Of a stretch of DNA of 64,000 nucleotides, positions 22,566-60,702 are shown one piece after another (the stretch's first letter is position 1; the number at the start of each line of letters is the position of its first letter). The position numbers were made by a program, and so were the translations under genes. The notes below the pieces were generated by a model. It was not told the origin of the DNA. It did not search any database and saw nothing but the letters and a program-made list of their open reading frames with translations. The stretch is from an uncultured Chloroflexia bacterium (GTDB lineage Bacteria; Chloroflexota; Limnocylindria; Limnocylindrales; CSP1-4), in contig CAWGNI010000002.1 in assembly GCA_963823925.1 (NCBI GenBank), positions 153,292-217,291 of the forward strand, written 5' to 3'.

Positions 22566-23480
22566 TCACACCGGGCGGCTGCGTCGTCTCGAGAGCGCGG
22601 CGATGTCGGCCGGACCGGTCCCGCAGCAGCCGCCCAGCCAGGTCGTGCCGATCCGGCCAAACCGACCGCATCGGGGTCGAATGCCCGCCGGCGTCGGCGA
22701 CCCATTGCCGTTCCGTCGCGTCCCAGCGATCCCCTCCGTTCGGGTAAGCGATGAGGGGTGCGTCACTCACGGCCCTCGCCTCGGGCGCTTGCCAGCAGGT
22801 CCGGCAGATAGCGTGGCGCCGTGCAATTGACGCCGATCGCGAGGACCGTGGGTGCGTCCCCGAACGCGACGGCATCCTCGATCGGCTCCCCGGCGGCCGT
22901 CGTCTCGCCATCGCGGCATGCGTAGCTCAGCCAACCGCGGGCACCGAGCTCGCCCAGCAACGCGACGACGACATCCGCCTCGCGGATCGTCGGGATCGTC
23001 TCGACCGCAAGCAAGTCGGCCCCGGCTTCGAGCAGCACCTCCAGCCGGGGCCGGTGAAAGGCCGCGAACCCGGCCCTCGTCAGATGGTAGTCACCGCGGT
23101 ATTCGGATCCGTTGGCGAGCATCGCCCCGTACGGACCGACCGAGCCGGCCACCAGCAAGGGTCGATCGTCGCCCGTCTCCGCCCGATACCGGTCGCGCGC
23201 CCGCTGCGCGAGTACGACGCTCGATCGGATGAGGGAGAGCGCCGCGTCGCGCTCGAACCCGGCCCCGCGAAACCCTCGATCGAGGCCTGATAGCTAGCCG
23301 TCGTCGCGACCTGGGCTCCGGCCCGGAAATAGGCCAGGTGGACGTCCTCGATCGCATCCGGATCCGTCTGGAGCAGGCGGGCCGACCAAAGGTGGTCCGA
23401 CAGATCGTGGCCGCGAGCCATCAACTCCGTCGCCAGCCCACCGTCGAGGACGGCGACGTCGTCCGGGACCGGGCCAGCTC
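22566..23480 (-). pseudogene. mmuM: homocysteine S-methyltransferase (MmuM/BHMT family) disrupted by at least 3 frameshifts
   Basis: The homology runs across three reading frames. The N-terminal part ([17 protein letters not shown]...ASIEGF) is in one frame. The middle ([10 protein letters not shown]...GVNCTAPRY) is in a second. The C-terminal parts (PLIAYPNGGDRWDA and TTWLGGCCGTGPADIAAL) are in two further frame segments. No start codon is evident either. Confidence 0.7.
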
Positions 23481-23492
23481 GGCGAGTCCACC

Positions 23493-24890
23493 TCAGTGCG
23501 TTCGGACGTAGTCTGCCGCGGATCGCTTGATGAATCGGCCGTGGCCTCGGCGGCCCGTGAACTCCCCATCGCGGACGATGACCGAGCCGCGCGACAGGAC
23601 GATATCGCTCCCGCCCTGGACGGAGCGCCCTTCGTAGCACGAATAGTCGACGGCCATGTGGTGAGTCGCTGCCGAGATCGTATGTCGCCGGTCGGGGTCG
23701 TAGATGACGATATCGGCATCGGAGCCGACCGCGATGGCACCCTTCTTCGGGTACATCCCGAACAGCTTGGCCGGCGCCGTCGCGATGATCTCCACCCACC
23801 GCTCCCGGGTGATCCGGCCACCGACGACGCCGCCGTCGTGGAGCAGATCCAGCCGGTCCTCGACGCCAGGCAGGCCGTTCGGGACCTTGCGGAAGTCATC
23901 GCGGCCGAGGTCCTTCTGGCCGTGGAAGTCGAACGGACAGTGGTCCGTGGCCACCAGCTGGAGGTCGTCCCTGACCAGACCCGTCCAGAGCTCCTCCCAG
24001 TGATCCTTCGTGCGGAGGGGAGGGGAGCACACGAACTTGGCGCCCTCGAACCCGTGGCCCAGGTCGTCGAGCGACAGGAACAGGTACTGCGGGCAGGTCT
24101 CGGCGAACACGTCCGACCCCCGATCGCGGGCATCCCGCACGACGTCGAGCGCCTCCCGGGCGGACAGGTGGACGAAGTAGACGGGCGCTCCGGCCGCCTC
24201 CGCCAGGCGGATGACCCGGTTCGTCGCCTCGCCCTCGAAGACGGGCATCCGGGCCAGCCCGTGACCGATCGGGTCGGTCGTGCCGGCCGCCACGGTCTGC
24301 TCGGCCACGACGTCGATGGCCATCCCGTTCTCCGCGTGCATCATGATCAGTCCGCCATTCGCGGCCGTCTGCTGCAGCGCCCGGAAGATCGCCCCATCGT
24401 CGCTGTAGAAGACGCCCGGGTAGGCGGTGAACAGCTTGAAGTCCGGCACCCCCTCGGCCACCAGCCCGTCCATCTCGGCCAGCGTGTCGTCATTGACGTC
24501 GCTCATGATCATGTGGAAGCCGTAGTCGGTCACGGCATTGCCCTCGGCCTTGGCGTGCCAGGTGTCGAGACCGTCGCGCAGGGACGCTCCCCGCGACTGG
24601 ACGGCGAAGTCCACGATCGTGGTGGTGCCTCCGAAGGCTGCCGCGCGCGTGCCCGACTCGAAGGTGTCCTTGGCGAACGTCCCGCCGAAGGGCAACTCCA
24701 TGTGGGTGTGGACGTCGATCCCGCCCGGGATGACGTACTTTCCGGTCGCGTCGATCGTCTCGTCGGGCTCGGCACCCGATGCGAGGAGATCGGTCCCGAT
24801 CCGCGCGATCGTCTCGCCATCGATCAGGACGTCGGCGACGGTCGAACCGTCGGCCGTGACGATCGTCCCGCCGGTGATCAGGGTGCGCAT
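23493..24890 (-). CDS. dihydropyrimidinase / D-hydantoinase (cyclic amidohydrolase)
   Basis: 465 aa of the metal-dependent amidohydrolase family with the HxH motif ([13 protein letters not shown]), a carboxylated-Lys region and hydantoinase-family similarity end to end. Confidence 0.85.
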
Positions 24891-24923
24891 CGGTCCCTCC
24901 TCGCCAGGTCGGCCTCTATCAGG

Positions 24924-25166
24924 TCAGGACCAGCATCGTAGGCGATGTGGGAGGAACGCCGCTGCGCCGGGGCGGCGGGTCAGCCCAGACCGAGTCGCCG
25001 GCGCCAACGGAGCGAGGATCCGAAGCCAGAGCGCCCCGACCAGGCCGCACGCCGTGATCGCGAGGCCGACGGCCAGCAGGCTCTCGGCCTGGACTCGGCG
25101 CCGGGTCCGCTTGGCGCGCACGCCTTCATCACCCCACCAGGGATCGCGGCCACGTCGTCGGATCAT
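24924..25166 (-). CDS. possible small membrane protein (hypothetical)
   Basis: About 80-aa ORF with one TM (LLAVGLAITACGLVGALWL) in the 400-bp gap between the LLM and hydantoinase genes. Support is weak. Confidence 0.2.
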   Translation of the reverse strand: MIRRRGRDPWWGDEGVRAKRTRRRVQAESLLAVGLAITACGLVGALWLRILAPLAPATRSGLTRRPGAAAFLPHRLRCWS

Positions 25167-25295
25167 CGCCCACCTCCAGGACGGCCCGGCAGCGACCGCT
25201 GGATCGACGGCGGCTGCGACGGGCGGACGACCATCGTCGCCGATACCGGGTACCGGTCGCCACCCTGACATCCGGCCCATCCGCCCCGACGACGA

Positions 25296-26290
25296 CTAGC
25301 CGCGCAGGCCCGGGATGACGTCCCGCCCGTACGCCTCGAGCTGGGCTTCCTCATCGCCGCTCATGAGATACAGGTTGAACTGGTCGACGCCGGCATCCGC
25401 CAGTTCGTGCAACTTGGCGACGTGCTCGTCGACCGAGCCGAGGATGCAGAACCGGTCCGCGACCTCGTCGCCGACGAAGGCGGCATTGGATGAACCGACC
25501 TCGGCGTGGTGCTCGTAGTCGTAGCCGGACCGATCGGTGACGTATCCGGTCAGGCTGGCCGGGAGCTGCTCGCGCGGGTACTTGTTGACGAGGTCGACGA
25601 CGTGGTTGGAGACGAGCGCCGGGAACCATCGAGTCCGCTCGCGGCCGACGTCGCGCGGTCCGACGTAGGCGGCGGCCGCCGACTGGACCTTGATCGTCGC
25701 CGGGTCCCGACCGGCCGCCGCGGCGGCCTCGCGGACCTGTCCGACGAACCAGCGGATGAGGTCCGGATCCGCGAGCTGGAGGATGATCCCGTCGGCGACC
25801 CGCCCGGCCATCTTGAGGGCCATGGGTCCATAGCCCGCGACCCAGACGGGCAGGGTCCAGTCGCCGGTCCAGGGCAACCGCAATTCGGTCCCCTCGTACT
25901 CGATGTCGCGCCCTTCGACGAGCGCCTTGATGGCGACGATCGCCTCCTCAAGGGTCGCCATCGTCGTCGGTGGCTTGCCGAGCATGCGTCGCGCCGAGTC
26001 GCCGCGACCGATCCCGAGATCCATCCGCCCGTCGGAGATCTCGTTCAGGGTCGCCAGAGTCGAGGCGGTGACCGACGGTTCGCGGGTCGCCGGGTTGGTG
26101 ACGCATGTGCCCAGGCGGAGCCGGGTCGTCGCCTCCGCCATCAGGGTCAGGAGGACGTACGGCTCACGCCAAAGGACGTGGGAGTCGAAGAGCCACGCGT
26201 AGTCGAACCCTGCCGACTTCGGCCTGGCGGGTCAGCGCCAGGGTTCGCTCGATCGAATGCTCAGGCTTGAGGGTGAAACCGAACTGCATG
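25296..26290 (-). CDS. LLM-class (luciferase-like) flavin/F420-dependent oxidoreductase, interrupted by a +1 frameshift near 26213
   Basis: The N-terminus MQFGFTLKPEHSIERTLALTRQAEV lies in one frame (26290..about 26215). The remainder (FDYAWLFDSHVLWREPYVLLTLMAEATT...) lies in the next frame down to 25296. One extra G in gtcgGcagg explains the shift. Confidence 0.7.
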
Positions 26291-26299
26291 ACAACGATC

Positions 26300-27163: not shown

Positions 27164-27223
27164 CTCGCTTGGCTGTCGGGTCGGTCCAAGTGGCCTGAGG
27201 GTACACCGCTGCGGGCGGGCGGA

Positions 27224-27613: not shown

Positions 27614-27677
27614 CTGGGCTCCTCGATGCGGCGTACGCTCAAGGTAGCACCGGCGCAGTCGTCGGTCTTGTCGTGGA

Positions 27678-28614: not shown

Positions 28615-29571
28615 GTGACCAGCGCGACCGACGACCCCGCCGCACCGCTCATCATCGTGAATCCACGGGCGGCGCGACTCCACGCCGCGCACCACCGTCA
28701 CGACGTGGTGGACGGGGTCGTGCGAGCGGTACGCGCAAGGACCGGGGAGACACCCCGGGTGGAGATGGGCAGCCTCGAGGCCGCCCAGACGGCCCTCGAG
28801 GCGAGCGACAGGGCGAGCCTGGTGGTCGCCGTCGGTGGCGACGGGACCATCCGGCAGGCCGCCGCCGCCCTCGCCGGGCGCCCGGTCACATTGGCGATCG
28901 TCCCGGGCGGCACCGGGAACGTGATGGCGGGATCGCTGCGGATCCGTGGGATCGGCCCGGCCCTGGAGGTGATCCGGCACGGAGAACCGCGCACGATCGA
29001 CCTTGGGATGGCGCGCTGGGGCTCGCCCGGCACGACCGAGCCCGCGGGCGAGTCGATCTTCCTGGTGGCCTGCGGCATGGGCCTCGACGCGCGGATCATG
29101 GCCGCCGCAGAGCATGAATGGAAACGCCGGATGCGATTCGGGGCCTACGTCGGTGCGGCTCTCAAGACCCTGCCTCGGCTCCGGCCCGCCGATTTCCAGA
29201 TCGACGCGGATGACGAGCACCTGGAGATCCGCGGCTACCTCGCGCTCGTCGCCAATGCCGGTGAACTGGTACCGGGGCGGATCGGACCGCGACGACGGAT
29301 CGACCCGTCCGACGGGCATCTCGACCTCATCGTCGTCGGCGGTGCCCATCCGGTCGCAGGCCTGCAGGCCGCAGCGCGCCTCATGCGGGCGCCCGGCGAC
29401 CTCGGTGGCAGCGTCATCCGGCGGGCGGTCGACCGCGTCCGGATCGCCTCGGATCCATCGGAGCCGATCGAGATCGACGGCGACCATCGAGCCGCCGGGC
29501 TGGCTCGAGGCGACGACCGTGCCACACGCGCTCCGCGTGCTCACGCCGAGACCTTGACGCCGACCGCCTGA
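28615..29571 (+). CDS. diacylglycerol kinase catalytic-domain family lipid kinase (YegS/BmrU-like)
   Basis: DAGK_cat motifs (VVAVGGDGT, IVPGGTGN). Confidence 0.7.
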   Translation: MTSATDDPAAPLIIVNPRAARLHAAHHRHDVVDGVVRAVRARTGETPRVEMGSLEAAQTALEASDRASLVVAVGGDGTIRQAAAALAGRPVTLAIVPGGTGNVMAGSLRIRGIGPALEVIRHGEPRTIDLGMARWGSPGTTEPAGESIFLVACGMGLDARIMAAAEHEWKRRMRFGAYVGAALKTLPRLRPADFQIDADDEHLEIRGYLALVANAGELVPGRIGPRRRIDPSDGHLDLIVVGGAHPVAGLQAAARLMRAPGDLGGSVIRRAVDRVRIASDPSEPIEIDGDHRAAGLARGDDRATRAPRAHAETLTPTA

Positions 29572-29594: not shown

Positions 29595-30029
29595 GTGGGC
29601 CAGATGACCTCCTCCAGGACGGCCACGGCGGGCATCGGGATCCTGGTGGTCGTCGTCGCGACGGCCGTCCGCGCCTTCTTCGCCGTCGTCGGCATGCTGA
29701 TCAGTGCCGGGGTCATGGATGAGAACGGACTTGCGCCCCTCTCCCCGGTCCCGGTCTACCCGTTGGACTCCGCGGCCGGCATCGTCTCGATGCTCCTGCT
29801 GGCCGGGGTCCTGGCGATGAGCCTTGCGAGCATCTGGGGCCTCGTCCGGAGACGATCGTGGGGCTGGACGCTGGCGATCGTGACGTCCGGGCTGATGCTG
29901 ACGTTGAGTCTGGGGTGGTGGGCTGCGGGTGAACCCCACTACCTGTCGATGTTCATCAATTCGGTAGCCGTCTTCTATCTGAATCAGCGGGACCTGCGGG
30001 CCGTGTTCGGGATCGGTCGCGGTGACTGA
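29595..30029 (+). CDS. membrane protein (hypothetical, 4 TM)
   Basis: 144-aa hydrophobic ORF. Its end overlaps the next gene start by 8 nt. Confidence 0.4.
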   Translation: MGQMTSSRTATAGIGILVVVVATAVRAFFAVVGMLISAGVMDENGLAPLSPVPVYPLDSAAGIVSMLLLAGVLAMSLASIWGLVRRRSWGWTLAIVTSGLMLTLSLGWWAAGEPHYLSMFINSVAVFYLNQRDLRAVFGIGRGD

Positions 30030-31845
30030 GGAACGCGACCTCGAACTGCTCCGCCGCCACGAGCCGATCCTGCGGTTCACCCAGGGCGAGTTGTTCTTCC
30101 CGATGGATGCCGAAACGTACGTCGCGAACTGCGACCTCCTCGAGGGGCCTACCCTGCGTGAGGCCAGGGTCGTCCTGCCCTCGGGTCGTCTCGACGTGGA
30201 CAGTCTGGCGGCGACCGCGGCGCCGCCTCCGGGACAGGCTCAATTCCTCCGCTTCGCGCCCAGGCCGATGGGTTCACTCGAACTCGCCCGCTGGCGCAAC
30301 CGGCCCGAACGGCCGCGGTTCTCTGCGCCGGGTCGCCTGGCGCGGGTCGGACTCATCGCGCGCCTCGTGGACGCGGGGCTCGTCATGTCCCTCCTGCTTC
30401 GAGGTCGCGTCCCCGGCGGGACCACGGCCGCCGCGTCGGAACGGTACGAGCGGATCCGCTCCGGTGATCCCCGGGTCGTCTATCACGGTCGGGTCGTGCG
30501 AGAAGGTCGCTGGGTCGTCCTTCACTACATGTTCCTGTATGCGATGAACGACTGGCGGTCCACCTTCGACGGCGCCAACGATCACGAAGCCGATTGGGAG
30601 CAGTGCTTCGTCGTCTGTGAATCGCGGGACGATGGCGAGATCCGACCCGCCTGGTTCTGTGCCGCTGCCCACGACGAGAAGGGAGATGACCTGCGCCGGC
30701 GCTGGGACGACCCGCGCCTGACCCTGGTCGATGGTCACCCGGTCGTCTATCCGGGCGCCGGATCGCACGCCACCTACCTGGAGCAAGGCGAGTACATCAT
30801 GCGCCTGCCCTTCCCGGGTGAGCGAAACCTGCACGGCCCGCTCGACCTGATCCGGCGGATCTGGCGAGATACGCTCGATCAACCCGATCCCGGAGACCTG
30901 GCCATGACCGCCCGGCGAGCCCTGAGCGTCCCGTTCGTGGACTACGCGCGTGGCGACGGCCGGGTCGTCGGGCCCGGCAGCGACGCGCCGTGGACCCCGC
31001 ACCTGATCGGCGACGACGACGGCTGGGTCGACCGGTACACCGGCCTGTGGGGCCTCGATACCGGCGACCGCTTCGCCGGCGAGCGGGCGCCGGCAGGGCC
31101 GAAGTACACGCGGACCGGGAGCGTTCGCCAGTCGTGGCACGACCCGCTCGGATTCTCGGGTCTCGACAAGGTGGCGCCCCCATCCCAGGCCATCCCGGCA
31201 CTGCGTGCGCGGATCGAGGCGCTCGAGGCGACCAGATCGCGTCTGCGCTCCGAAACCGCCGAACTCGAACGGTCGTTGCCCCTCCTCGAGGCGGAGGTGG
31301 CCGCCGTGCGGGCCACGCCTGGCGCAGACACCTATCGGGACGCGCGAGCGACCGAGCTGGCCGATGGCGCCGCTCGACTGGCCGGGTTGCGCGTGGAGAC
31401 CGTTGAAGTCGGCACGGCGGTCACGGCGGCGCAGGCCAGGGTGATCGAGTTGCAGGCTGGTCGCCTCGACGACCCGCGTGCCCATCTCCGCCACGCCGCG
31501 GAACCTGAACCGCCGATCGTGATCCAGCGTCGCGCGCTCGCCGAAACGTGGGCGGCGTTCAGTGTCGGCCTGCTCATCGCCGGCCTCGCGGTCATCGTCT
31601 GGCTGCGGCTGTTGCCGCCCGTCCTGGCCGTGGTCGCCCTGTTCGGGTCGTACCTCGCGATCGAGTCCTTTTTCCGTAGGGACATCCAGATCCTGGTACT
31701 GCGACTGACCCTTGCCCTGGCCTTCGTCAGCGTCGTCATCCTGGTCGTCACCTTCCTGCGCGAGGTCGTGCTTCTCGGGCTGCTCGCCCTCGGCATCCTG
31801 TTGATCCTCGACAATCTCGGCGAACTGCGGCGGCGCCTCAGTTAA
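30022..31845 (+). CDS. hypothetical protein: about 380-aa N-terminal globular domain, coiled-coil segment, C-terminal 3-TM anchor
   Basis: 607-aa ORF with uniform codon usage. The middle region (EALEATRSRLRSETAELERSLPLLEAEVAAV) is coiled-coil-like. The C-terminal hydrophobic helices include (AAFSVGLLIAGLAVIVWL, LLGLLALGILLIL). I recognise no known catalytic motif. Confidence 0.5.
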   Translation: MTEERDLELLRRHEPILRFTQGELFFPMDAETYVANCDLLEGPTLREARVVLPSGRLDVDSLAATAAPPPGQAQFLRFAPRPMGSLELARWRNRPERPRFSAPGRLARVGLIARLVDAGLVMSLLLRGRVPGGTTAAASERYERIRSGDPRVVYHGRVVREGRWVVLHYMFLYAMNDWRSTFDGANDHEADWEQCFVVCESRDDGEIRPAWFCAAAHDEKGDDLRRRWDDPRLTLVDGHPVVYPGAGSHATYLEQGEYIMRLPFPGERNLHGPLDLIRRIWRDTLDQPDPGDLAMTARRALSVPFVDYARGDGRVVGPGSDAPWTPHLIGDDDGWVDRYTGLWGLDTGDRFAGERAPAGPKYTRTGSVRQSWHDPLGFSGLDKVAPPSQAIPALRARIEALEATRSRLRSETAELERSLPLLEAEVAAVRATPGADTYRDARATELADGAARLAGLRVETVEVGTAVTAAQARVIELQAGRLDDPRAHLRHAAEPEPPIVIQRRALAETWAAFSVGLLIAGLAVIVWLRLLPPVLAVVALFGSYLAIESFFRRDIQILVLRLTLALAFVSVVILVVTFLREVVLLGLLALGILLILDNLGELRRRLS

Positions 31846-35968: not shown

Positions 35969-37069
35969 ATGAAACTGTCTCGCAAGCTGGTCGGCCTGTC
36001 GGCCGCGGCCGTGCTGGTACTCGCGGCGTGCTCGAGCAGCGGGTCGTCCGCCGCCGCGCTGACGCCGCTCAAGTTCCAGCTCCAGTGGGTCGCCCAGTCC
36101 CAGTTCGCCGGCTACTACGCGGCGGTCGACCAGGGCTATTACAAGGACGCCGGCCTCGACGTCACGCTGCTGCTGGGTGGACCGAACATCAACAACGTCC
36201 AGGTCGTGGCGACCGGTGGGGCGGACATCGGGACGGCGTGGCTTCCGAACATGCTCCAGTCGCGCGAGGGCGGGACGGATCTCGTCTCGATCGCCCAGAT
36301 CTTCCAGCGCTCGGGCACGCGGATGGTGTCGTTCACGGGCGCGAACATCACGACCCCTGCCAGCATGGATGGCAAGAAGATCGGCAGCTGGCTGGGCGGC
36401 AATGAGCCCGAACTGTTCGCCGCATTGACCAAGGCCGGGCTCGATCCGACCACGCAGAACATCATCAAGCAGAACTTCGACATGTCCGGCCTCCTCAACG
36501 GCGACCTCGATGTCGCCCAGGCGATGATCTACAACGAGTACGCCCAGGTCCTCGAGGCGAAGGACCCGGCCACCGGGGAGCTGTACAAGCCGAGCGACCT
36601 CAACCTGGTCGACTTCAACGACCCATCGGTCGGGACGGCGATGCTCCAGGACCAGATCTTCGCCACCGATGCGTGGCTCAAGACCGGCAATAATGCCGAT
36701 GTCGCGGAGAAGTTCCTGGAGGCGACCTTCAAGGGTTGGATCTACTGCCGTGACAACGCCCAGAAGTGCGTCGACATCGTGCTCGCCAAGGGGTCGCAGC
36801 TCGGGGCCAGCCATCAGGCCTGGCAGATGAACGAGATCAACGGGCTCATCTGGCCGTCACCGAACGGGATCGGCCTGCTGGACCAGACGCTCTACGACCA
36901 GACGGTTTCGATCGCCACCACCTACGGCGTCCTCCAGGCCGCGCCCGCCGATGGGGCGACCCGGACGGACCTCGCCCAGAAGGCCCTCGACGCGCTCGGC
37001 AGCTCGGTCGACACGAAGGGGATGGGCTTCACGAAGGCGACGGTCACGCTGACCGAGGGCGGCAACTAG
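35969..37069 (+). CDS. ABC transporter substrate-binding lipoprotein (NMT1/THI5-like, NitT/TauT family)
   Basis: Lipobox (LAAC|SSS) and GAGGAGG RBS. About 330-aa periplasmic binding fold of the NMT1/THI5 type, which is often pyrimidine or HMP related. Confidence 0.8.
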   Translation: MKLSRKLVGLSAAAVLVLAACSSSGSSAAALTPLKFQLQWVAQSQFAGYYAAVDQGYYKDAGLDVTLLLGGPNINNVQVVATGGADIGTAWLPNMLQSREGGTDLVSIAQIFQRSGTRMVSFTGANITTPASMDGKKIGSWLGGNEPELFAALTKAGLDPTTQNIIKQNFDMSGLLNGDLDVAQAMIYNEYAQVLEAKDPATGELYKPSDLNLVDFNDPSVGTAMLQDQIFATDAWLKTGNNADVAEKFLEATFKGWIYCRDNAQKCVDIVLAKGSQLGASHQAWQMNEINGLIWPSPNGIGLLDQTLYDQTVSIATTYGVLQAAPADGATRTDLAQKALDALGSSVDTKGMGFTKATVTLTEGGN

Positions 37070-37146
37070 CCGCTCGCGGTCCGATCGACATCGACGGTCG
37101 GCTCGTGACCGGCCGGCCCGTCGATCTTCCGCGGGATCCGGGGCAC

Positions 37147-38157
37147 CTAGGACGACCTGGCCCAGGATCGAAGCGTCTTCATATAGTTGACTCGCTCGAA
37201 GGCGGCTGGGTCGCCGACCGTCGCCTGACTGGCGCTGCCCCTGAGCTCCTCGACCAATTCGTAGTCGCGCTCGGTCAGCCACGCGCGCAGGTCGGACACG
37301 ACCCTGGCGACGTGCTCGGGACCCTGGCGGAGCAGGGCAGAGGTCATCATCACGACATCGGCCCCGACCATCAACCCCTTGACCACATCGGTCCCGCTGG
37401 CCGCGCCCGATGTCGCCGCGAGCGATACGCGGGCGTCCAGCTGGGGTCGAAGGATGGCGATCCAGCGGACCGGCAGCCGCATCTCCCAGGGATGGCTCAA
37501 CTCGATCCTGGGTACGACCTCGAGCGCATCGAGATCGAGGTCCGGCTGGTAGAACCGATTGAACAGCACGAGCCCATCGGCACCCGCGCCGACCGCTTGA
37601 GCGGCGAAGTTGGCGAAGGCCGAGTAGAACGGGCTCAGCTTGACCGCCAGGGGGATGGCGATCGAGTCGCGGACGGCGGTGATCAGGGCGAGGTCGATCG
37701 CGTCCATCTCCTCCGCCGTTCGATGCGGGTCGGTCGCGAGGTGGTACAGGTTGAGTTCGAGCGCATCGGCGCCGGCGGCCTCAAGTTGACGGGCATATTC
37801 CACCCAGCCGCCGGGCGTGCTCGCGTTGAGACTCGCGATCACCGGGATATCGACGGCCTCCTTGACCCGCTCCAGCGAGGCGACGTATCGGTCGGCCACG
37901 CCGATCAGGCCCTGGACCGCCGGGAAGTAGTCGAGCGCCTCGGCGAACTGACCGGTGCCCTGTTCGAGCGCGCGATCGAGGGCCAGCTCCTCGCCCACGA
38001 CCTCCTCCTCGAACAGCGACGGCAGGACGATCGCACCCGCTCCCGAGTCCTCGAGGCGACGGGCCATGTCGGGGTCCGCGTTGTCCGGTGCGGCCGAGGC
38101 GACGACCGGCGAGCGGAGTTCGAGACCCAGGTAGCGCGTACGCAGATCGACGCTCAC
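37147..38157 (-). CDS. dihydroorotate dehydrogenase-like protein (DHOD/DPD PreA-like FMN TIM barrel, no ferredoxin domain)
   Basis: GTG start with an AAGGAGA RBS. About 336 aa with DHOD-family similarity (LGLELRSPVVASAAP...AVKLSPFYS...GLVLFNRF). The start overlaps the PFOR stop by 4 nt. Confidence 0.75.
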   Translation of the reverse strand: MSVDLRTRYLGLELRSPVVASAAPDNADPDMARRLEDSGAGAIVLPSLFEEEVVGEELALDRALEQGTGQFAEALDYFPAVQGLIGVADRYVASLERVKEAVDIPVIASLNASTPGGWVEYARQLEAAGADALELNLYHLATDPHRTAEEMDAIDLALITAVRDSIAIPLAVKLSPFYSAFANFAAQAVGAGADGLVLFNRFYQPDLDLDALEVVPRIELSHPWEMRLPVRWIAILRPQLDARVSLAATSGAASGTDVVKGLMVGADVVMMTSALLRQGPEHVARVVSDLRAWLTERDYELVEELRGSASQATVGDPAAFERVNYMKTLRSWARSS

Positions 38158-43082: not shown

Positions 43083-43240
43083 CGGACCGCTCGGCCGCTG
43101 TCCGAGCCGCGGAGGCGCCCGCGGACACCGGCCTAGGCAGCCATTCGTCAGGGTTGGACGCCGCGGGCAACGGCGCTACCGTCGAGGGCGACCTTGTGAT
43201 GCGCGTCCACACGCGCCAGTCCAGGCGTGCTGCATGAACG

Positions 43241-44813
43241 GTGGCGACCATTGCTCGAAGCGTCCCGGACGGCCTCGCAACATCGATGGCTGGAGCCTCG
43301 TTGAGTCGCGCCGTCGCCTTCCCGGTCGCGGTCGGCCTCTCACTCGTTCTGGCCTGGTCGGCGTCTGCCGCCGGGCCGGGCGTCACCGTGGTCCGCGAGA
43401 CGCCCGTCAGCGCAGCCCCGAGGAGCAGCTCGAGCCGGACTCGGGAGCCGATCGTCGCCGCCCATCCGACCGATCCGACCCGGATCGCCGTGACCTATCC
43501 CCGGGGCGACACGCACCCCAAGGGATGTCATCGCCATCTCGCACGACAGCGGCAAGACATTCAAGGCCGCAGCCGGCGACCCGGCGGGCGGGGGCAACCA
43601 CCCGGCGATCGCCTGGGGCAAGGGCCCGAAGGCGGGCTCTGCGCGGCTCTACTACATGGCCCTGACCACGGCGGGCGGGCGATGCTGCGTCTTTGCCATC
43701 TCGCACAGCGACAACGAGGGGCGGACCTGGTCCGCGCCGTTCATCGCCCGCGGCACGACACCCTGGTTCGGCGGCTTTCCTGACATCACGACCGATGACG
43801 ACCCGGCGAGCCCCAACTACGGGACCGTGTACGCGGCCTACAACTGGCCGGCCAAGCCGAGCAAAGGGCCGGGGCTGCGGCTGCTGGCTTCGTCCGACTA
43901 CGGCCGCACGTTCCACGGCATCGAGGTCCCGGTCGCCAGGACCCCAGCAGGGTTCGGCGACAGCTGGCGGATCGACTACCGCGTCGAGCCCGCGCCCGAC
44001 GGCTCCGCCTACGTCGCCTTCTACCAGCGTGACCTCCGGTCGTGGAATATCGGCAGTCCGTTCTCCTATGGCGGGCTCTCGAATGTCGGCCGGATCGGCT
44101 TCTCGGTCGCCCGCTTCACCTATCACCGCTCCAGCGGGAGGTTCTCGCTCGGCCCCACGGTGATGGCGGCGAAGCTGTCGAGGACGGCCTGGAACATCGG
44201 CAGCGGGTCGCCGGTCACGGGACTGACGGATCCGATGTGGAATTTCGGGCTCGCCGTCGACCCGGGCACCGGGGCGGTCTACCTCGCGGTCGGGATCGAC
44301 GGCGGTGTCCGCGTCTACCGGAGCAACACCAACGGCGTCACCTGGGCCTACAGCACGCTACCCGCGGCCAGCGCAGTGGCCGGACACCGACAGAAGACCT
44401 TCCATCCGAACGTCGTGGCCGGTGACGGCTTCGTGCTGGTCACCCTGCACACGATCGACCGCTCCGGCGCCTCGCGCTCGGTCGGTAACGACTATGCCGT
44501 CTCGTTCGACCATGGCAGGACGTGGACTCGCCCGAAGGCGATCAGCCCGAGCCGCTGGAAGACGAGGTACTTCTCGTCGACCTACAACGGGGTCGGACTG
44601 CGCGAGCGCGCGGTCCTCACGGCCGACGGGACACGCGTGTTCTGGGCCTATGGCGATGGACGCATGGGCCGCTACGGGTTCAGCCGCATCTACGGCACCC
44701 TGCTCTCGGTCACGAAACCGGTCCCAGCGCCTGACCCGACGCCCACGCCCACGCCCACGCCGACACCGACGCCCATGCCGGCACCTACGCCCGCGCCATC
44801 ATCGGTTGGGTGA
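43241..44813 (+). CDS. secreted BNR/Asp-box repeat protein (sialidase-like beta-propeller) with C-terminal Pro-Thr linker; frameshifted near 43510
   Basis: Multiple SxDxGxTW Asp-boxes (SHDSGKTF, SHSDNEGRTWS, SSDYGRTF, SNTNGVTWA, SFDHGRTWT). The N-terminal signal-like segment is in a different frame from the rest. Confidence 0.55.
44737..44800. repeat. (ccS acS)n low-complexity repeat encoding PTPTPTPTPTPTPMPAPTPAP linker
   Basis: Direct reading of the sequence. Confidence 0.7.
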
Positions 44814-44856
44814 CCGGCAACCCTTCACTACCAGGCGGCGGCAGCGGCGGCCGTGA

Positions 44857-45507
44857 TCAGTCGGGTCGGCCGGTCCCGAACTGGCGGTCGCCCGCGTCAC
44901 CCAGCCCTGGGAGGATGTAGCCCTTCTCGTTGAGCTGGCGATCGAGCGCGGCACAATAGATGGCGACGTCGGGATGCGCCGCCGCGACTGCCTCGACACC
45001 CTCCGGCGCGGCGATCAGATTGACGAGCTTGATCCGGACCGGCTTGACGGCGCCCCACTTCTTGAGGATCTCGATCGCCGCCGTCGCGGAGCCGCCGGTC
45101 GCGAGCATCGGATCGAGGATCAGGCACAGGTCCACGGTCGCCGAGTCGGGCATCTTGTTGTAGTACTCGACCGGCCGCAGCGTCTTCTCATCGCGGAAGA
45201 GCCCAAGGTGCCAGACCTGGGCGGTCGGCATCAGCTCGAGCATCGCATCGACCATCCCGAGGCCGGCTCGGAGGATCGGCACGAGCCCGATCCGCTCGCC
45301 CAGTTCGTGCGCCGACATCGATTCCATCGGCGTCCTGATCTCCAGCTGCCGAAGCCCGACATCGGCCAGCGCCTCGTACCCGAGCAGCCAGGAAAGTTCG
45401 CGGACGACTTCACGGAACTTCTTCGGCTCCGTGTGCTCGTCACGCAGGATGGCCAGCTTGTGCCGGACGGCGGGATGCTGCGAGACATGGAGTGTCGAAG
45501 CGGCCAT
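44857..45507 (-). CDS. upp: uracil phosphoribosyltransferase
   Basis: 217 aa with a PRPP-binding motif ([15 protein letters not shown]) and Upp family similarity. The start was set at [12 protein letters not shown]. Confidence 0.85.
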
Positions 45508-50719: not shown

Positions 50720-50838
50720 CCGGCGCGACCACGATCACCGGGGACGCTCGATGACCGCCGATCCAGCACCCGTCCTTCGAGCGCCCCGGGTCGTTCGTGT
50801 CCCGTGGCCGGCGATCGGTCTGATCGTCGCGGCCGGGA

Positions 50839-51417
50839 TTGGCCACCGGTGTCCTGACCCAGGTCGGCCAGGGTTTCCTGCCGGCAGGGTTCGGTCAGGT
50901 TGCCAATGCCATCTCGCCCTGGCTCCTGGTCGCCTTCACGGTCGGGTCGTTGATGCCCACGCCTGGTTGGGCCGCCGGCAGCGGGATCGGGGCGATGATC
51001 CTGGCGCTCGTCAGCTACTACGCGATGGTCGAGCTACGGTTCGGGTACGGGGCATCGTCCAGCTCGCTCCTCGTGTGGGGGACCGGGGCGCTCGTCGGTG
51101 GGGCCGTCTTCGGCATCGCCGGTCGGTGGTGGCGAGGCGATCGACCGTGGCGGCGTGGACTCGCCATCGGGCTCCTGGCCGCGGTGACGATCGCCGAGGG
51201 TGTCTACCTCGTCGGGATCCTCACGGAGCCGGTGGTCGGCGTCGCATTCATCGCCGCCGGGGTCTCGGTACCGCCGCTCGTGGGCCGGACCGCCGACGAC
51301 TCGCGACGTGGCTACCTCGCGATCCCGCCGATGCTGGTCGCTCGGATTGGCCGGCTACACGGCCTTCAGCGCCCTGTACGCGTTCGCGGCCGGCATCTGA
51401 GGACAATGCGGCGTTAA
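50839..51417 (+). CDS. integral membrane protein (hypothetical); possible N-terminal extension from 50752 in another frame
   Basis: About 190-aa hydrophobic ORF. An upstream ATG at 50752 opens a TM-like segment (WPAIGLIVAAGIG) in a different frame. This may be another indel. Confidence 0.35.
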   Translation: MATGVLTQVGQGFLPAGFGQVANAISPWLLVAFTVGSLMPTPGWAAGSGIGAMILALVSYYAMVELRFGYGASSSSLLVWGTGALVGGAVFGIAGRWWRGDRPWRRGLAIGLLAAVTIAEGVYLVGILTEPVVGVAFIAAGVSVPPLVGRTADDSRRGYLAIPPMLVARIGRLHGLQRPVRVRGRHLRTMRR

Positions 51418-52138: not shown

Positions 52139-52157
52139 GATCCGGCGGCGCCTGCCC

Positions 52158-52776
52158 TCAGTTCGCCTTGTGGTACATCCGCTCCATCGCCTCGACCGCA
52201 TCCTCGGCCGCGTCGATGGTGTCCTCGAAGTAGGTGTACAGGTCGCGCCACTTGATGACTTCGATCGGCGGCAGGTCGTCGGCGAACAGGCGGGCCATGG
52301 CGGCCCTCGACAGCCCGTCGGCCTCCTTCTCCAGCTGGTGCACCGCGGCGAAGTGGCGCTCCAGGTCCTTGAGTCCGTCCAGCTTGCCGAGGGCGGCGAA
52401 CAGCTCCTGGGCCTGTCGCATCCAGGATGGCCGCAAGTCGGCGGGCCTCGGCGGTCGGCCGGTCGACCCCGTAGATCACGAACGCTTCGGCGATCGACTG
52501 GATCCCGTCGACGACGTCATCGAGCCTGGACACGAGTTCGTGGATGTCCTCGCGATCGAACGGGGTGACGAACGCATCCTCGAGCCGGCGGGTGACCTCT
52601 TCGTCGATCTCGTCTCCGCGTTTCTCCTGTCCCTGGATGGTGGCGACCCGGGCTTCGAGCCGGTCGTACTGCTCGACCATGTCGTGGAGGGCGGCGGCCG
52701 CGGCCGCAAGGTTCTCGCCATCGGCCACGAACAACTCGAAGAACTTCGGGTCCTTGGGCAAGATGTGGATGTTCAT
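52158..52776 (-). CDS. DUF47-family (PhoU-like, YkaA-type) Pit-accessory protein; frameshifted near 52425
   Basis: The N-terminal half (MNIHILPKDPKFFELF...FDREDIHEL) is in one frame. The C-terminal half (QAQELFAALGKLDGL...EVIKWRDLY) is in the adjacent frame. One extra G in acaGgccc explains the shift. Confidence 0.65.
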
Positions 52777-52852
52777 CGGGGTCCCTCCGGATCGGTGCCT
52801 GGGGCTGGATCGGTTCGTGTCACTGGTGATGGGCGAGTCGGGTCGAGGATGG

Positions 52853-53853
52853 TCATGGGGCCCCCAGTGCGTTCAGGACGACCCAGCACAGCGCGGCGAT
52901 GACGGCGGCGCCCGGGATGGTGAGGACCCAGGCGAACAGGATGCGACGGGCGACGCCCCAGCGCACGGCCCGGGCTCCCTGGCTCGCGCCCACGCCCATG
53001 ATCGACCCCGAGATGACCTGGGTCGTCGAGACCGGCATCCCGAAATGGGCCGTGGCGAACAGGATGGATGCGGCGGTCGTCTCGGCGGCGAACCCGTGGA
53101 CCGGTTCCAGCTTGGCGACGCGTTGCCCCATCGTCTTCATGATCCGCCAGCCGCCGACCGCGGTCCCGGCGGACAGCGCGGTCGCCGAGACCACGATCAC
53201 CCAGGTCGGGACGACGACCTCGTCGAGGACCCCGGCCGAGACGAGGGCGAGGGTGATGATGCCCATCGTCTTCTGGGCGTCGTTCGAGCCGTGGGCGAAG
53301 GCCATGAACGCTGCGGAGAAGACCTGGAGCCGGCGAAAGCGGCGGCCCATCGGCTTGCGCTTCGACGACCGGAAGGTCCAGTACAGGGCCAACATGAGCG
53401 CGAAAGCGATGAAGAACCCGAGCACCGGTGACGTGAGCATCGGGATGATGACCTTGTTGACGATCCCGTTGATGTTCAGCGCGTCGGTTCCGGCGGCGAT
53501 GACCGTGGCCCCGATCAGCCCCCCGATCAGGGCATGACTGCTCGAACTCGGCAGACCCTGCTGCCAGGTGATGAGGTTCCACAGGATCGCGCCGATGAGC
53601 GCCGCCGCGACGATCGCCTGGGTCGTCGTCTGATCGTCGACGAGGCCGCTCCCGATCGTCTTGGCGACGGCCGTGCCCGCGAAGGCCCCGATGAAGTTGA
53701 AGGCCGTGGCCATGAGGATGGCCCGACCGGGCGACAGGGCTCGGGTCGCGACCGATGTCGCGATCGCGTTGGCCGTGTCGTGGAACCCATTCGTGTAGTC
53801 GAACACGACGCCAGGGCGACGACGACGACGAGCATGGCGGTCACGCCATCCAA
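52853..53853 (-). CDS. pitA: inorganic phosphate transporter, PiT family; frameshifted near its 5' end (about 53808)
   Basis: PHO4/PiT signature (FDYTNGFHDTANAIATSV) and a second repeat (FAHGSNDAQKTMGII). The N-terminal 15 aa (MDGVTAMLVVVVALA) are in a different frame. Confidence 0.75.
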
Positions 53854-53917
53854 CGCGGGGCCTCCTGCTTGGTGTCACCCTATCGTAGCCGGGCGGCGCA
53901 CCCGCTATCCTTCGCGG

Positions 53918-55618: not shown

Positions 55619-55674
55619 CCGTCGTGAGCCTGCCCGGACGGCCGAGCCGGGGATCGGCCCGGTAGGATGCGGGC

Positions 55675-56754: not shown

Positions 56755-56805
56755 CCGAGCCGGCCGCGCTGACATCGCGACCATCGGCTATGCCATGCTC
56801 GCGGT

Positions 56806-58033
56806 GTGGATGCATGGTTCATCGTCGCCGCTGTGGCGATCGTCGGTCTCGGCGTCGTGATCGTCATCGCCCTGCGCCAGCGACGGGCGATGGCTCGGAT
56901 CCACCAGCGGCTCGGGATCGGGCCGGAGCGCGATCCGGTCGCCGCCGCCGCGTCGCTCCAGGACGACGTCGCCCGCGCTGAAGCGCAGGTCGACACGCTG
57001 ATCGACGATCGGACGGCATTCGTCGATGCCATGGCGCAGGGCGTCCTGTTCGTCGACGATCGACTTCGGATCGTCCGGGCCAATGCGGCGGCCCACGAGC
57101 TCCTTGGGAAGACGGCGACGCCGCTGGCCGGGCACTCGTTGATCGAGGCGTTCCTCGATACCGGGGTGGAGGGCCTGGCCCGCACGGCGATGGCGAGTGG
57201 GTCGGCGAGCGGCGAGATCGCGGTGGCCGGGGCGGACGGACCGCGCCTGCTGCTCCGGGCTCGCACGGCCCCGTCCGGCGGCCTCTGGCTGATCATCGAT
57301 GACGTTTCCGAGCTGCGCCGGCTCCAGCAGATCCGCGCCGAGTTCATCGACAATCTGTCGCATGAACTGCGAACGCCCCTGACGACCGTGAGCCTGCTGG
57401 CCGAGACGCTCGCTCGCGAGGCCGATGCGTCCGGGGAGGCAGTGCCGCCCAGGATGCGCGACCGGATCGGCAAGATCGAGGTCGAGACCGGCCACCTCGT
57501 CCAGATGGTCAACGAGCTGCTCGACCTGTCGCGGATCGAAAGCGGCGGGGCCCTCGGGGTCCTGGACCTGCTCGACCTCGGTGAGCTGGCGACCGACTCC
57601 ACCGAACGCCTCCGACTCTTCGCCGAGCGCCAGGCCGTCGCGCTGCAGGTCGCGATCGAAGGTTCGATCCCGTCGGTCCGGGGCGATGCCGATCGGCTCG
57701 GCCAGGTCATCGTGAACCTGCTGCACAACGCCGTGAAGTTCAGTCCGGGAGGCGGACCGGTGACCGTCGCGGTCAGGCCCGAACCGACCGAGGTCGTCGT
57801 GGCCGTGGCTGATCATGGGGTCGGCATCCCGCCCGCCGCGCAGGGCCGGATCTTCGAGCGCTTCTACAAGGTGGACCGGGCACGCGTCCGGGGCGAGACC
57901 GGTGGGACCGGGCTGGGACTGGCCATCTCCCGGCACATCGTGGAGCAGCACGGCGGCCGGATCTGGGTCGAATTCGACCGAGGGGATCGGCAGTACATTT
58001 TCGTTCTCGATCCCGGTCGCCGAGGGGGTTTGA
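56806..58033 (+). CDS. sensor histidine kinase (TM-PAS-HisKA-HATPase, PhoR/SenX3-like); +1 frameshift near 57973 shifts its 3' end into the frame of the next gene
   Basis: H-box LSHELRTPLTTV and a G2 box (GTGLGLAI). The genuine C-terminus (GIGSTFSFSIPVAEGV-stop) is in the adjacent frame. One extra T in gaaTtcgacc explains the shift. Confidence 0.75.
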
Positions 58034-58779
58034 TGGACCGACTGCACGTGACGACGCTCAACATCCGGAACCTGGCCGATCGCTGGTTCGAACGCCTGCC
58101 GCTCCTGCTCGCCGACATGGCCGCCCTGCAGCCCGACCTGCTCGGGCTCCAGGAGGTCGTCTACGTCATGCAGCAGGACCGGTTGATCGGGGCGGCCGGC
58201 GAAGGCCACTACCGCGCGGTCCGTGGATGGGCCGGTCGGCCGGAGTACGGGAACAGCCTGCTCATCCGCGAGCCATTGGCCACGGACGGGGTCGATCGGC
58301 TCGAACTCGGCTTGCAGCGATCGGCCCAGTCGAGCACCGTCGCGATGCCCGGCGGCGCCAACGTCCGAGTGGTCGTCACCCACCTCCATCATCTCGTCCC
58401 GGATGCCAGCGCCCGGGACGAGCAGACGGCAGCGATCGTCGAGTGGCTGGCCGACGGCCCACCCAGTGACGTCACGATCGTCATGGGCGACTTCAACGCC
58501 CATCCCCTGGAACCCGCACCCAGCCGACTTCGGGCGGCCGGCTTCCGATCCGCCTTCGCGGAGGCCAACGGCGCGGAGCCGGCGGTCACCTGGCCGTCCG
58601 GCCTGCAGGCGCCCGCGATGGACACGGACGGCGATCCGGCTTGTCTCGACTACATCTGGGTCCGCGGGGCGGTCACGGTCGAGTCGTCGCGGCTCGTGTT
58701 CGATCGCCCCGACGCCGACGATCCCACGCTCTTCCCGAGCGACCACATCGGGATCAGCGCGATGCTCCAGATCGGCTAG
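58032..58779 (+). CDS. endonuclease/exonuclease/phosphatase (EEP) family protein
   Basis: Typical EEP N-terminus (MDRLHVTTLNIRNL...LLGLQEV) and C-terminal motifs (IVMGDFNA, SDHIGI). Its ATG overlaps the kinase stop (TGATG). Confidence 0.65.
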
Positions 58780-58787
58780 CGACCCCG

Positions 58788-59463
58788 ATGGCTCCGCCGA
58801 TCGCCCTGCGCCTCGCCCATCGCGGTGACTGGCGACACGCCCCGGAGAACACGATCGATGCGTTCAGGGCGGCGATGGCGATCCCGGCCTGCGACGGATT
58901 GGAGTTCGACGTCAGGACCTCGAGCGACGGCGTCCCGGTGGTCTACCACGACGACACCCTTGCCCGGGTCCACGGCCGGCCGGACCGCGTCGACGGCATG
59001 TCGGCGAATGCCCTCGAGGAGCTCGGTGTGCCGACCCTCTGGGCGGTCCTGGCCGCGGTGGGTCGCAACGCCTTCCTCGACGTCGAACTGAAGGCGGACA
59101 TCGGCCCCGCCTTCGTCGAAGTGATGGCCGCGGGGCGTGGGCCGGGTCTGGAACGTGCGGTCGTCTCCTCGTACGACCCGATCGCCCTCGACCGGGTCTC
59201 CCATCTTGCTCCGCGCTGGCCGCGCTGGCTGATCGCCGATCGGCTAGATCCGGATGCCATCGACGTGGCGACGCAGCTCGGCTGTCAGGCTGTCGCGGCC
59301 GGCTGGCGATCGCTCGACGCGGCGAGCACTGGGGCGGCCAGGGCGGCCGGTCTCGACGTTGCCGCCTTCACGGTCCGGGGACGATCGACATTCGACCGTC
59401 TCGAGCGACTGGGCGTGTCGGCCATGTGCGTCGAGGGTGCGGCGCTCGACGTGAAGGGGGGCA
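58788..59463 (+). CDS. glycerophosphodiester phosphodiesterase (GDPD/UgpQ family); no in-frame stop before the following oxidoreductase domain
   Basis: GDPD N-terminus (LAHRGDWRHAPENTIDAF...GLEFDVRTSSDGVPVVYHDDTL). The 3' boundary is unclear because the frame continues into the FAD-binding motif. Confidence 0.6.
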
Positions 59464-60702
59464 TCGTGACGGATCGGGTCGATCGGGCGGATCTCGTGGT
59501 CGTCGGGGCCGGGACGATCGGAGGATGGGCGTCGGTCTTCGCCCAGGCGGGCGGCGTCGGACGGGTCATCGTGGTCGAGCAGGGGACCGTCGGCAGCGGC
59601 GCCTCCTCGCGCGCCGCCGGCATCGTGCGCGCCCAGGGCGGGACCCCGGCGGCCGTCGCCCTCGGGCGCTGGTCGATCGATTTCTACAACGGCCAATCCG
59701 CAGCCTACGGCACCGACTCGGGGTTCCGCGAGCTCGGGTACCTGATCCTCGCCGTCACCGAGGACGATGAGACGGCCGGGCACGCACGGGTCGCCATGCA
59801 GCGGGCGCATCGGGCTCGATGTCAGCTGGCTCGGCCCGGCCGAGGCCGCCGCGCTCGCGGGAACGCTGGCCCCGACGGGTCACCGCGGCGGCAGCTTCAT
59901 CGCCACCGATGGAGCGATCGATCCGCCGCGCAACGTGCTCGCCTACTCGCTGACGATGCAGGCAACCGGGGTCAGCCTGCGGGAACGGACCCGGTTCACC
60001 GGGTTGCGGACCGAGGTGTCACCGGGCGGTGGCCGGCGCGTCGTCGCCGTCGAGACGGATGCCGGGATCATCGAGACGCCACGCGTCCTCCTCACGGGCG
60101 GTCCGAGTCTCCGGGCAGTGGGTCGGCTTGCCGGGGTCGATATCCCCACCGGCGCCGTCCGCCATACCGTCGCGGTCCTTGAGCCGCACCCGGCGTTCGA
60201 TCTCCCCCGGGCGCCGATGGTCTTCGACATCGGGGCCGGTCTGTACTGGCGACTCGAGGAGGGTGGGCTCCTGTTCGGCTGGAGCGATCCGGACGACCGG
60301 CCGGGACCGGCCCGGATGATCGACTGGACGTACTACGACGCGATGCGTGCTCGCCTCGGCAGCCTCGTCCCCGTGACCACCGAGCTGGGGCTGCGCCGGA
60401 TCTGGACGGCGACCATCGACTACACGCCGGATCACCTGCCGATCGTCGGGCCCGCCCTCGCGCGTGGCGGTACGCCCATCGAGGGGGTCACCGTCGCCTC
60501 GGCCGGGGGTCACGGGATGATGTGGGGCCCGGGCGTCGCCCGAGTGGCCGCCGATCTCATCGTCGACGGTGAGACGGCGTTGATCGATGCGTCCGAGCTC
60601 GGCCTCGACCGCTTCGACGCCGACGGCCGGAGCCGGCTCGCGACCGACCCGATCGCCCTGCCCTTCCCGGAGACCTCGCCGGGGTCGGAAGCGAGCGACT
60701 AG
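59464..60702 (+). CDS. FAD-dependent oxidoreductase (DAO family; glycine/sarcosine/glycerol-3-phosphate oxidase-like); frameshifted near 59806
   Basis: Dinucleotide motif DLVVVGAGTIGG...VIVVEQG and the N-terminal third are in one frame. The remainder (LGIDVSWLGPAEAAAL...GGHGMMWGPGVARVAADLIV) is in the next frame. Confidence 0.6.

Follow-up and report, generated by a model that had tools for sequence, protein, structure and literature searches.

Small insertions and deletions that break reading frames across a Limnocylindria contig are probably consensus errors of a Nanopore-only assembly rather than gene decay

The window analyzed here, a stretch of 64,000 nt from an uncultured Chloroflexia bacterium, contains genes whose reading frames are interrupted by small insertions or deletions (Table 1). 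There are 16 frame-breaking events in the 38,137 nt between positions 22566 and 60702 of the deposited sequence (0.42 per kb), or 17 in total once the lesion in lgt, which lies outside this interval, is counted, and every one of the 17 is an indel of 1-2 nt. Nonsense mutations, IS elements, larger deletions and truncations were not found among the lesions of the broken genes. All eight loci for which the original prediction had proposed broken frames (mmuM, LLM, BNR, a membrane protein, DUF47, pitA, a histidine kinase and DAO) are truly broken in the window, and events in DAGK (29487), DUF6518 (51338), GDPD (~59450) and lgt (19986) can be added to its list.

Table 1. Features with frame breaks, and the adjoining EEP gene, in the window
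Feature	Coordinates	Strand	Lesion or remark
lgt (prolipoprotein diacylglyceryl transferase)	19916..20946	+	one G missing ~19986 (GGG -> GG)
mmuM (homocysteine S-methyltransferase)	22566..23491	-	six indels
Luciferase-like monooxygenase (LLM)	25296..26289	-	extra T ~26217-26222; first 24 codons in other frame
Diacylglycerol-kinase-like gene (DAGK_cat/YegS_C)	28765..29557	+	extra T at 29487; last 22 codons shifted
BNR/sialidase-like secreted protein	43286..44813	+	+1 break between 43511 and 43523
DUF6518 membrane protein	50751..51400	+	two +1 breaks: extra A 50838, extra T 51338
DUF47 (PhoU_div), PitA partner	52158..52776	-	+1 break ~52413-52416
pitA phosphate transporter	52853..53853	-	one base missing at 53807-53809, after codon 15
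PhoR-like histidine kinase	56806..58033	+	extra T at 57973, GAA[T]TCG (within GAATTC)
Endonuclease/exonuclease/phosphatase (EEP)	58033..58779	+	ATG overlaps kinase stop (TGATG)
GDPD	58788..59454	+	stop lost via 2-nt deletion ~59450
DAO-family FAD oxidoreductase	59466..60702	+	+1 break at 59807-59811

At 69% GC, ORFs in the wrong frame are long and look 'conserved' as well, which made a raw six-frame comparison of ORFs with those of relatives noisy, and it was replaced by a protein-to-DNA dynamic-programming aligner that permits frameshifts. By Pfam profile splits and these alignments, the two parts of each broken gene match one protein family colinearly; the corrected proteins are full length, share 82-94% identity with their orthologues, and contain no in-frame stop in any frameshift-aware alignment. 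A single contig of 297,459 nt, present in both NCBI and ENA, encodes the proteins of the window. It has a syntenic sister contig with a Flye-style name (ena:ERZ25039539:contig_7580, 305,779 nt), in which mmuM, LLM, DAGK, DUF6518, GDPD, DAO and LGT are intact, and from which the BNR gene and the DUF47-pitA pair are absent.

The most heavily affected gene is mmuM, for which at least three breaks had been predicted and six events were located by frameshift-aware alignment to the intact syntenic sister orthologue (P0083, 304 aa): ~23473 (+1 net), 23267 (-1), 22780 (+1 net), 22682 (-1), 22660 (-2) and 22650 (-2). Positions 2-61, 65-218 and 244-281 of the Pfam S-methyl_trans profile are spread over three ORF pieces. 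The predicted break in LLM was borne out by a Bac_luciferase match that begins only at profile position 34 and by intact orthologues of 330-334 aa in the sister and in short-read contigs. At the end of the DAGK gene, the C-terminus of the sister protein matches window frame +2 with an identical stop position, and the coding-frame model leaves +f1 at 29483; in lgt, the sister protein aligns to frame +2 over residues 1-28 and to +1 thereafter.

For the BNR protein, a break had been proposed near 43510, and the interval in the table is defined by a GC3 switch between frames and by homologues (P0323, P0324 and P0326; 509-515 aa) that are colinear across it; the signal peptide and the first ~70 residues are encoded in +f2 from the ATG at 43286 and the rest in +f3. 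The membrane protein break at about 50830, earlier labeled uncertain, is present and is accompanied by a second one, such that the middle ORF spans only positions 18-187 of the 204 in the Pfam profile, while the sister has an intact gene of 215 aa. The DUF47 break, predicted near 52425, splits the Pfam profile into 16-107 and 130-212, against five intact orthologues of 205-237 aa in L001, L003, L007, L014 and L096. Since the Pfam PHO4 profile (1-350) fits within one ORF, pitA was at one point considered intact; this was dropped because the conserved N-terminus, LDGVTAMLVVVVALA, lies in another frame. The base predicted to be missing near 53808 is revealed by nucleotide alignments (CTGG-CGTC in the window vs CTGGCCGTC), and a pitA orthologue of 333 aa with 87% identity is intact in the short-read contig L096.

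Two of the breaks create the appearance of gene fusions. The predicted extra T of the kinase is present at 57973, and the unshifted frame encodes STEGIGSTFSFSIPVAEGV followed by a TGA stop at 58031-58033. It is only because of this shift that EEP appears fused to the kinase, as a 668-aa ORF with Pfam Exo_endo_phos at residues 428-658; in L001, L003 and L004 the orthologous EEP ORF and the kinase are in different frames. Further downstream, GDPD and the N-terminus of DAO share one ORF, as the GDPD stop is lost (GAC GGA TGA in the sister vs GACG--TGA in the window by nucleotide alignment) and the frame therefore continues into DAO; the GDPD of relatives ends in ...ALDG*. The DAO break, proposed at about 59806, splits the Pfam DAO profile (1-119 and 112-353), and the gene is intact in the sister (410 aa) and reads through in L005 as well.

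The closest GTDB relatives are 'MFD...bin' metagenome-assembled genomes (MAGs), which also use contig_N naming. The MFD MAGs were assembled with Flye from Nanopore reads only and given one round of Medaka polishing (PMC12313526), and it has been found that bins below ~40x coverage require Illumina polishing and that indels produce frameshifts (PMC9262707). Across the 62.0 kb of coding DNA that was aligned in the MFD loci, the frameshift-aware method counted 34 breaks, 29 of them +1, with strong variation among loci (8 in L007, 11 in L014, 14 in L015, 1 in L017 and 0 in L005 and L008), and genes such as gltX, proS, upp, PhoU and PstB are affected. In assemblies classed as short-read by the style of their contig names, a single break, itself doubtful, was seen over 83.6 kb (Fisher p = 5e-12 vs MFD). 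Both the density and the +1 bias of the window fall within the long-read range. One contig of short-read style, L097, has a break in gltX, so the technology control is not perfectly clean.

These observations lead us to conclude, with a probability of roughly 85%, that the frame breaks of the window are an assembly artefact and do not reflect gene decay: they would be consensus errors left in a metagenome assembly made from Nanopore reads only. The original prediction had left the choice between long-read or consensus error and a decaying lineage: the first is favored by the 1-2 nt spectrum and the similar behavior of Nanopore-only relatives, and the second is disfavored, as no relaxed selection was detected. 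By this account the window itself is presumably Nanopore-only, and its reads probably would not support the indels. The contig belongs to a soil Chloroflexota lineage of the Limnocylindria/Limnocylindrales type and was most likely assembled from a metagenome with Nanopore reads alone, using Flye and Medaka at modest coverage, and the breaks would be residual consensus errors of one base, occasionally two, that are mostly spurious insertions and not mutations of the organism. Such errors may gather where effective read support is poorest, in population-specific or divergent segments such as the mmuM allele, the BNR island and the DUF47-pitA island with its surroundings, and be absent where co-occurring relatives are highly conserved (nifJ, NMT1). 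The kinase-EEP and GDPD-DAO 'fusion' ORFs would then be by-products of errors near gene ends.

Some features of the data speak against an artefact. One is that the events lie mostly outside homopolymers, unlike textbook Nanopore error: the suggestion that several breaks are +1 changes in 2-3 nt homopolymers holds for a few sites, but most events are insertions in a non-repetitive context, frequently of a T before CG. A methylation motif (GANTC or TCGA) was considered as the origin of the errors and rejected, as it fits loosely at the kinase and at none of the other sites, and L014 and L005 have GANTC at the kinase site without the error. Another is that the breaks are markedly uneven, with variable or accessory genes over-represented, and real gene loss would look alike. 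The unevenness that had been noted earlier, with large genes intact, is significant: the probability of at least 6 events in mmuM is 3e-6 and that of 0 events in the gap at 29.6-43.1 kb is 0.003, and nifJ, gltX, proS and pckA are unbroken.

The indels could also have arisen during assembly where two related populations differ, as in the divergent mmuM allele and the islands, if reads of both were merged there and polishing then yielded a patchwork carrying indels. This sub-type of artefact is possible, if somewhat doubtful. It would account for the unusual divergence of mmuM, where identity to the sister is ~90% over the N-terminal 74 residues and clearly lower after that (73% over the whole gene), the drop coincides with the break at 23267, and dS leaps to 0.80 vs 0.33-0.51 in neighboring genes; the break-free stretches also coincide with the genes of strongest conservation (nifJ and NMT1, dS 0.12). 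However, LLM and DAGK each carry a single break in sequence with no local divergence, where protein identity to the sister is 92-94%.

Alternatively, the lineage could have begun very recently to shed dispensable genes (mmuM, Pit/DUF47, the sialidase-like gene, DAO and LLM) through real indels. Such pseudogenization would fit the gathering of breaks in genes that vary among relatives, including those that the sister lacks, the sparing of the large essential genes, and the state of mmuM, which combines six events with a higher dN than any other enzyme compared and a slightly longer branch in a relative-rate test (28 unique changes vs 20, a mild excess that is not decisive). Yet the coding information on both sides of the breaks is intact and under selection: over 1,530 codons downstream of breaks, read in the original frame, dN/dS is 0.128 (0.088 in LLM, 0.14 in DAO and 0.23 in mmuM), compared with 0.03-0.29 in intact neighbors, and no rise towards 1 was found; of the 159 highly conserved positions of mmuM, 9 deviate in the window (5 in the sister) and 150 are kept even with six indels. 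Of the lesions typical of decay, nonsense mutations, larger deletions and IS insertions are all missing; breaks also fall in core genes (LGT, DAGK and the PhoR-type kinase); and Nanopore-only relatives have the same +1 bias and clustering, with breaks in gltX, proS and upp. Inheritance of the same lesions by relatives was not seen in the sister, which is free of every break except the kinase T and has a private +1 break in a response regulator whose window copy is intact. As very recent real mutations leave no trace in dN/dS, selection tests are unable to exclude them at individual sites; across the window, we consider recent pseudogenization unlikely.

The kinase is the one site where a break recurs: the window, the sister (L093) and the distant L094 all have an identical extra T at one and the same codon. 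Window and sister differ by nine nucleotides in this segment; read in the hidden, unshifted frame these changes alter 1 residue out of 16, and read in the annotated frame 7 out of 17, and since the substitutions are mostly synonymous in the hidden frame, that frame is the one under selection. The expectation that breaks shared by related genomes indicate ancestral pseudogenes thus finds a match at the kinase alone and is misleading there. If the T were real and conserved in several Limnocylindria, it could mark a recoding site: ribosomes that shift by +1 there would make the normal kinase, and those that decode in the standard way a kinase-EEP fusion, coupling phosphate sensing to a phosphoesterase. 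In keeping with this, the unshifted C-terminus and the stop that overlaps the EEP start codon are kept in all three contigs, and a true in-frame kinase-EEP fusion occurs in a JGI contig (P0205). Nevertheless, such recoding is highly improbable. GUC GAA UUC GAC offers no known +1 slippery or stop-codon context and no P-site re-pairing, and no shared heptamer or in-frame stop was found across the break-site contexts examined; the T is absent from L001, L003, L005, L012, L014 and L095-L098; and other long-read contigs have kinase-EEP fusions that stem from frameshifts at other positions (P0298, P0320). The three carriers all have Flye-style names, and those of the sister and L094 come from neighboring ENA analyses (ERZ25039539 and ERZ25039495 lie near each other). 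A systematic error is the most likely source of the recurrent T, and because an error can recur at one codon, finding a break in more than one genome does not establish that it is a real mutation.

Gene calls from this contig should therefore be read with a quality warning, as they include artefacts: fragmented mmuM, LLM, DUF47, PitA and DAO, a 657-aa 'kinase-EEP' protein and the GDPD-DAO ORF. Artefact proteins of this kind are already in public protein collections (P0203, P0204), and pseudogene load, gene loss and domain fusions in Limnocylindria will be misread if they are deduced from Nanopore-only MAGs.

Programmed +1 ribosomal frameshifting is known from cases of the prfB type. The kinase site alone resembles it, in having a conserved +1 site with a conserved downstream frame, but it has no in-frame stop, hungry codon or slippery P-site codon and is not conserved in short-read relatives. 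Decaying genomes rich in pseudogenes, such as those of Mycobacterium leprae and of recently host-restricted pathogens, share with the window many conserved genes cut by frameshifts. The window differs from them in its lack of nonsense mutations, IS elements, deletions and relaxed selection, in belonging to a free-living, high-GC soil lineage, and in the intact copies of its sister. The indel errors of Nanopore-only MAGs, as described by the IDEEL test (Sereika et al. 2022, PMC9262707) and for mmlong2 MAGs (PMC12313526), differ in that the literature stresses homopolymers, and in that one window site, the kinase, is identical in three contigs. Their likeness to the window extends to one-base indels that cut otherwise intact genes, to a rate that varies strongly by bin, to fused or fragmented gene calls, and to breaks that are found in long-read relatives and are nearly absent from short-read-style assemblies.

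Assembly or consensus error is the best explanation for the frame breaks in the window, which has a GC content of 69% and a dense gene map, as obtained by codon-usage Viterbi segmentation. Exact look-ups mapped its proteins to one 297,459-nt contig in NCBI and ENA, and versions of several of them that are at least 90% identical are encoded by a second, 305,779-nt contig (ena:ERZ25039539:contig_7580, hereafter the sister), which was sampled as three overlapping stretches (L081, L092 and L093). The two contigs are syntenic from 12.7 to 64 kb of the window, where they share 83-89% nucleotide identity. The best relatives of the gltX product (81-86% amino-acid identity) come from uncultured Limnocylindria/Limnocylindrales-type Chloroflexota, and among these are several 'MFD...bin' metagenome-assembled genomes (MAGs) with contig_N names. 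Frame breaks were detected by aligning orthologues of the sister, as well as those of other relatives, to the window with a purpose-written protein-to-DNA aligner that tolerates frameshifts, each site was additionally checked by nucleotide alignment, and Pfam profiles were scanned on stop-to-stop ORF pieces of the window.

The original prediction listed breaks in eight loci between 22566 and 60702, and the alignments upheld all eight, including the DUF6518 membrane protein about which it was uncertain. With 16 events in these 38.1 kb (0.42 per kb), the density it described is correct and was even understated, as was the count for mmuM, where 'at least 3' holds but the true number is six; the distribution is also clearly uneven, as it had said. 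For pitA, Pfam suggested an intact gene, which was overturned by the conserved N-terminus lying out of frame.

Frame breaks by gene, with the alignment or profile evidence at each site
Gene	Break	Evidence	In original prediction
lgt	one G missing at 19986		no
mmuM	six breaks (22650, 22660, 22682, 22780, 23267 and 23473)	Pfam profile divided among different ORF pieces (2-61, 65-218, 244-281)	yes
Luciferase-like monooxygenase (LLM)	extra T near 26217	Pfam match begins only at profile position 34; orthologue alignment	yes
DAGK-like	extra T at 29487	last 22 codons shifted	no
BNR	between 43511 and 43523	+f2 holds the signal peptide with the first ~70 residues; 509-515-aa homologues colinear over the break	yes
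DUF6518	50838; second break at 51338	both profile ends missing (Pfam on ORF pieces)	first break only (uncertain)
DUF47	~52415	Pfam profile split 16-107 / 130-212	yes
pitA	one base missing, 53807-53809	conserved N-terminus LDGVTAMLVVVVALA out of frame	yes
PhoR-like histidine kinase	extra T at 57973	one 668-aa ORF: PAS, HisKA, HATPase_c (profile 1-102 of 111), then Exo_endo_phos domain	yes
GDPD	2-nt deletion ~59450	stop lost	no
DAO	~59809	Pfam profile split 1-119 / 112-353	yes

All lesions are indels of 1-2 nt (+1, n = 10; -1, n = 4; -2, n = 3), no stop codons were found after frame correction in the frameshift-tolerant alignments to orthologues, and all broken genes are full length once their frames are corrected. 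Most events are not homopolymer errors; the original prediction had described several as +1 changes in 2-3 nt homopolymers. At 26217, 29487 and 51338, the insertion is clearly a T immediately 5' of CG, and the same placement is among those possible at 57973 and ~59809, where the position of the inserted base is ambiguous; a longer motif common to these five sites was not found. Two further frame differences between window and sister, at residue 4 of an acetyltransferase (~15079) and close to the end of a hypothetical ORF of 61 aa (~24995), lie too near gene ends to judge.

In window-sister comparisons, intact genes have pairwise dN/dS values of 0.03-0.29, and those of the broken genes all fall within this range (LLM, 0.086; DAGK, 0.11; DUF6518, 0.15; LGT, 0.18; mmuM, 0.24). 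Codons past the first break, read in the original frame, have a dN/dS of 0.128 (n = 1,530 codons), and of the 159 highly conserved columns of mmuM, 150 are retained in the window and 154 in the sister. The mmuM, LLM, DAGK, DUF6518, GDPD, DAO and lgt genes are intact in the sister, which has a +1 T of its own in a response regulator (L093 ~6193 = L081 ~1659; called as 149 + 76 aa) that is unbroken in the window.

The kinase break is shared. The out-of-frame tail (IWVEFDGG...) is encoded by the sister too, a distant contig (ena:ERZ25039495:contig_1582, locus L094, 61% identity) has IWVDFGG... at the same codon, and the identical +1 T occurs at one kinase codon in three contigs that all have Flye-style names (window 57973, L093 ~11168, L094 ~7132). 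The original prediction proposed that shared breaks would indicate ancestral pseudogenes, which this site matches at face value; however, three observations oppose that reading here. First, reading on from the T in the unshifted frame gives, in all three contigs, the canonical C-terminus of a kinase (S.EG.GSTFSF.IPV), and the stop of this frame overlaps the start codon of the endonuclease/exonuclease/phosphatase (EEP) gene in window and sister. Second, window and sister differ at nine nucleotides over this stretch, and these differences change one codon of the unshifted frame and 7 of 17 residues of the annotated, shifted one. Third, the T is missing from relatives that lie between the carrier lineages, both on short-read-style contigs and on other MFD contigs. 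A consensus error that recurs systematically in one context, GA[A/T]-TCG, is the most parsimonious interpretation, and genuine recoding at this site is only a remote alternative.

In the window, the unshifted kinase frame reads STEGIGSTFSFSIPVAEGV, the normal end of ~408-aa PhoR-type homologues, and then a TGA (58031-58033) that overlaps the EEP ATG (TGATG); therefore, the 657/668-aa kinase-EEP protein is a product of the shift. The GDPD-DAO ORF has a like origin, in which the lost GDPD stop leads to read-through into DAO. Protein P0205 (654 aa, from a JGI contig) has its kinase C-terminus in frame (IWVESVEGSGATFSFALPV...) and continues into an EEP domain; it may be a genuine natural fusion. 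A 773-aa ORF at 2482-4800 (-), which joins a Phage_holin_4_2-like membrane segment to part of a Phosphodiest domain (1-222 of 342 profile positions), may represent either a real fusion or one more frame problem. An ORF of ~608-620 aa at 29983-31842 has a strong coding signal, no Pfam match and a conserved counterpart in the sister (85% identity, dN/dS 0.11).

The stretches without breaks lie in the most conserved DNA (nifJ and NMT1, dS 0.12 versus 0.3-0.8 elsewhere), and breaks gather in segments that vary among relatives. Such a low dS of the NMT1-like gene and nifJ against the sister (35969-41804) points to exceptional conservation or to a recent exchange. BNR (43098-44865) and the DUF47-pitA pair (52140-53891) are missing from the sister, whose 607-nt spacer contains no remnants of them; the short-read SPCO01 relatives (L095-L099) have DUF47-pitA and lack the DUF6518 and EEP genes. 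In its N-terminal 74 residues, window mmuM is ~90% identical to that of the sister, and the similarity clearly drops beyond (22578-23267; 73% overall, dS 0.80). It is no more similar to the sister gene than to ~120 other homologues, and could represent either a recombinant or a divergent allele. Population-specific segments of a metagenome would have less usable or mixed coverage at polishing, and so might accumulate more errors. Since this coverage account is inferred and true loss of dispensable genes would give a similar uneven pattern, we keep about one chance in ten that some sites are genuine, recent pseudogenes.

With error as the best explanation, the biological interest of the breaks is low, and their practical value lies in caution over protein entries derived from this contig. 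Nanopore reads alone, a Flye assembly and a single round of Medaka polishing underlie the MFD MAGs (PMC12313526), and according to a report from the same group, bins below ~40x coverage require Illumina polishing and indels yield frameshifted gene calls (PMC9262707). With the same aligner and reference proteins, 34 breaks (29 of them +1) were counted over 62.0 kb of aligned coding sequence from six MFD contig_N loci, including ones in gltX, proS, upp, PhoU and PstB, and clustered locally (for example, five in ~400 nt of a kinase gene), versus one doubtful event in 83.6 kb across twelve loci with short-read-style contig names (Fisher p = 5e-12). On one short-read-style contig (L097), gltX is also broken, at ~11131 and called as 349 + 141 aa. 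The rate of 0.42 per kb, the +1 bias and the clustering seen in the window are all inside the range of its MFD relatives.
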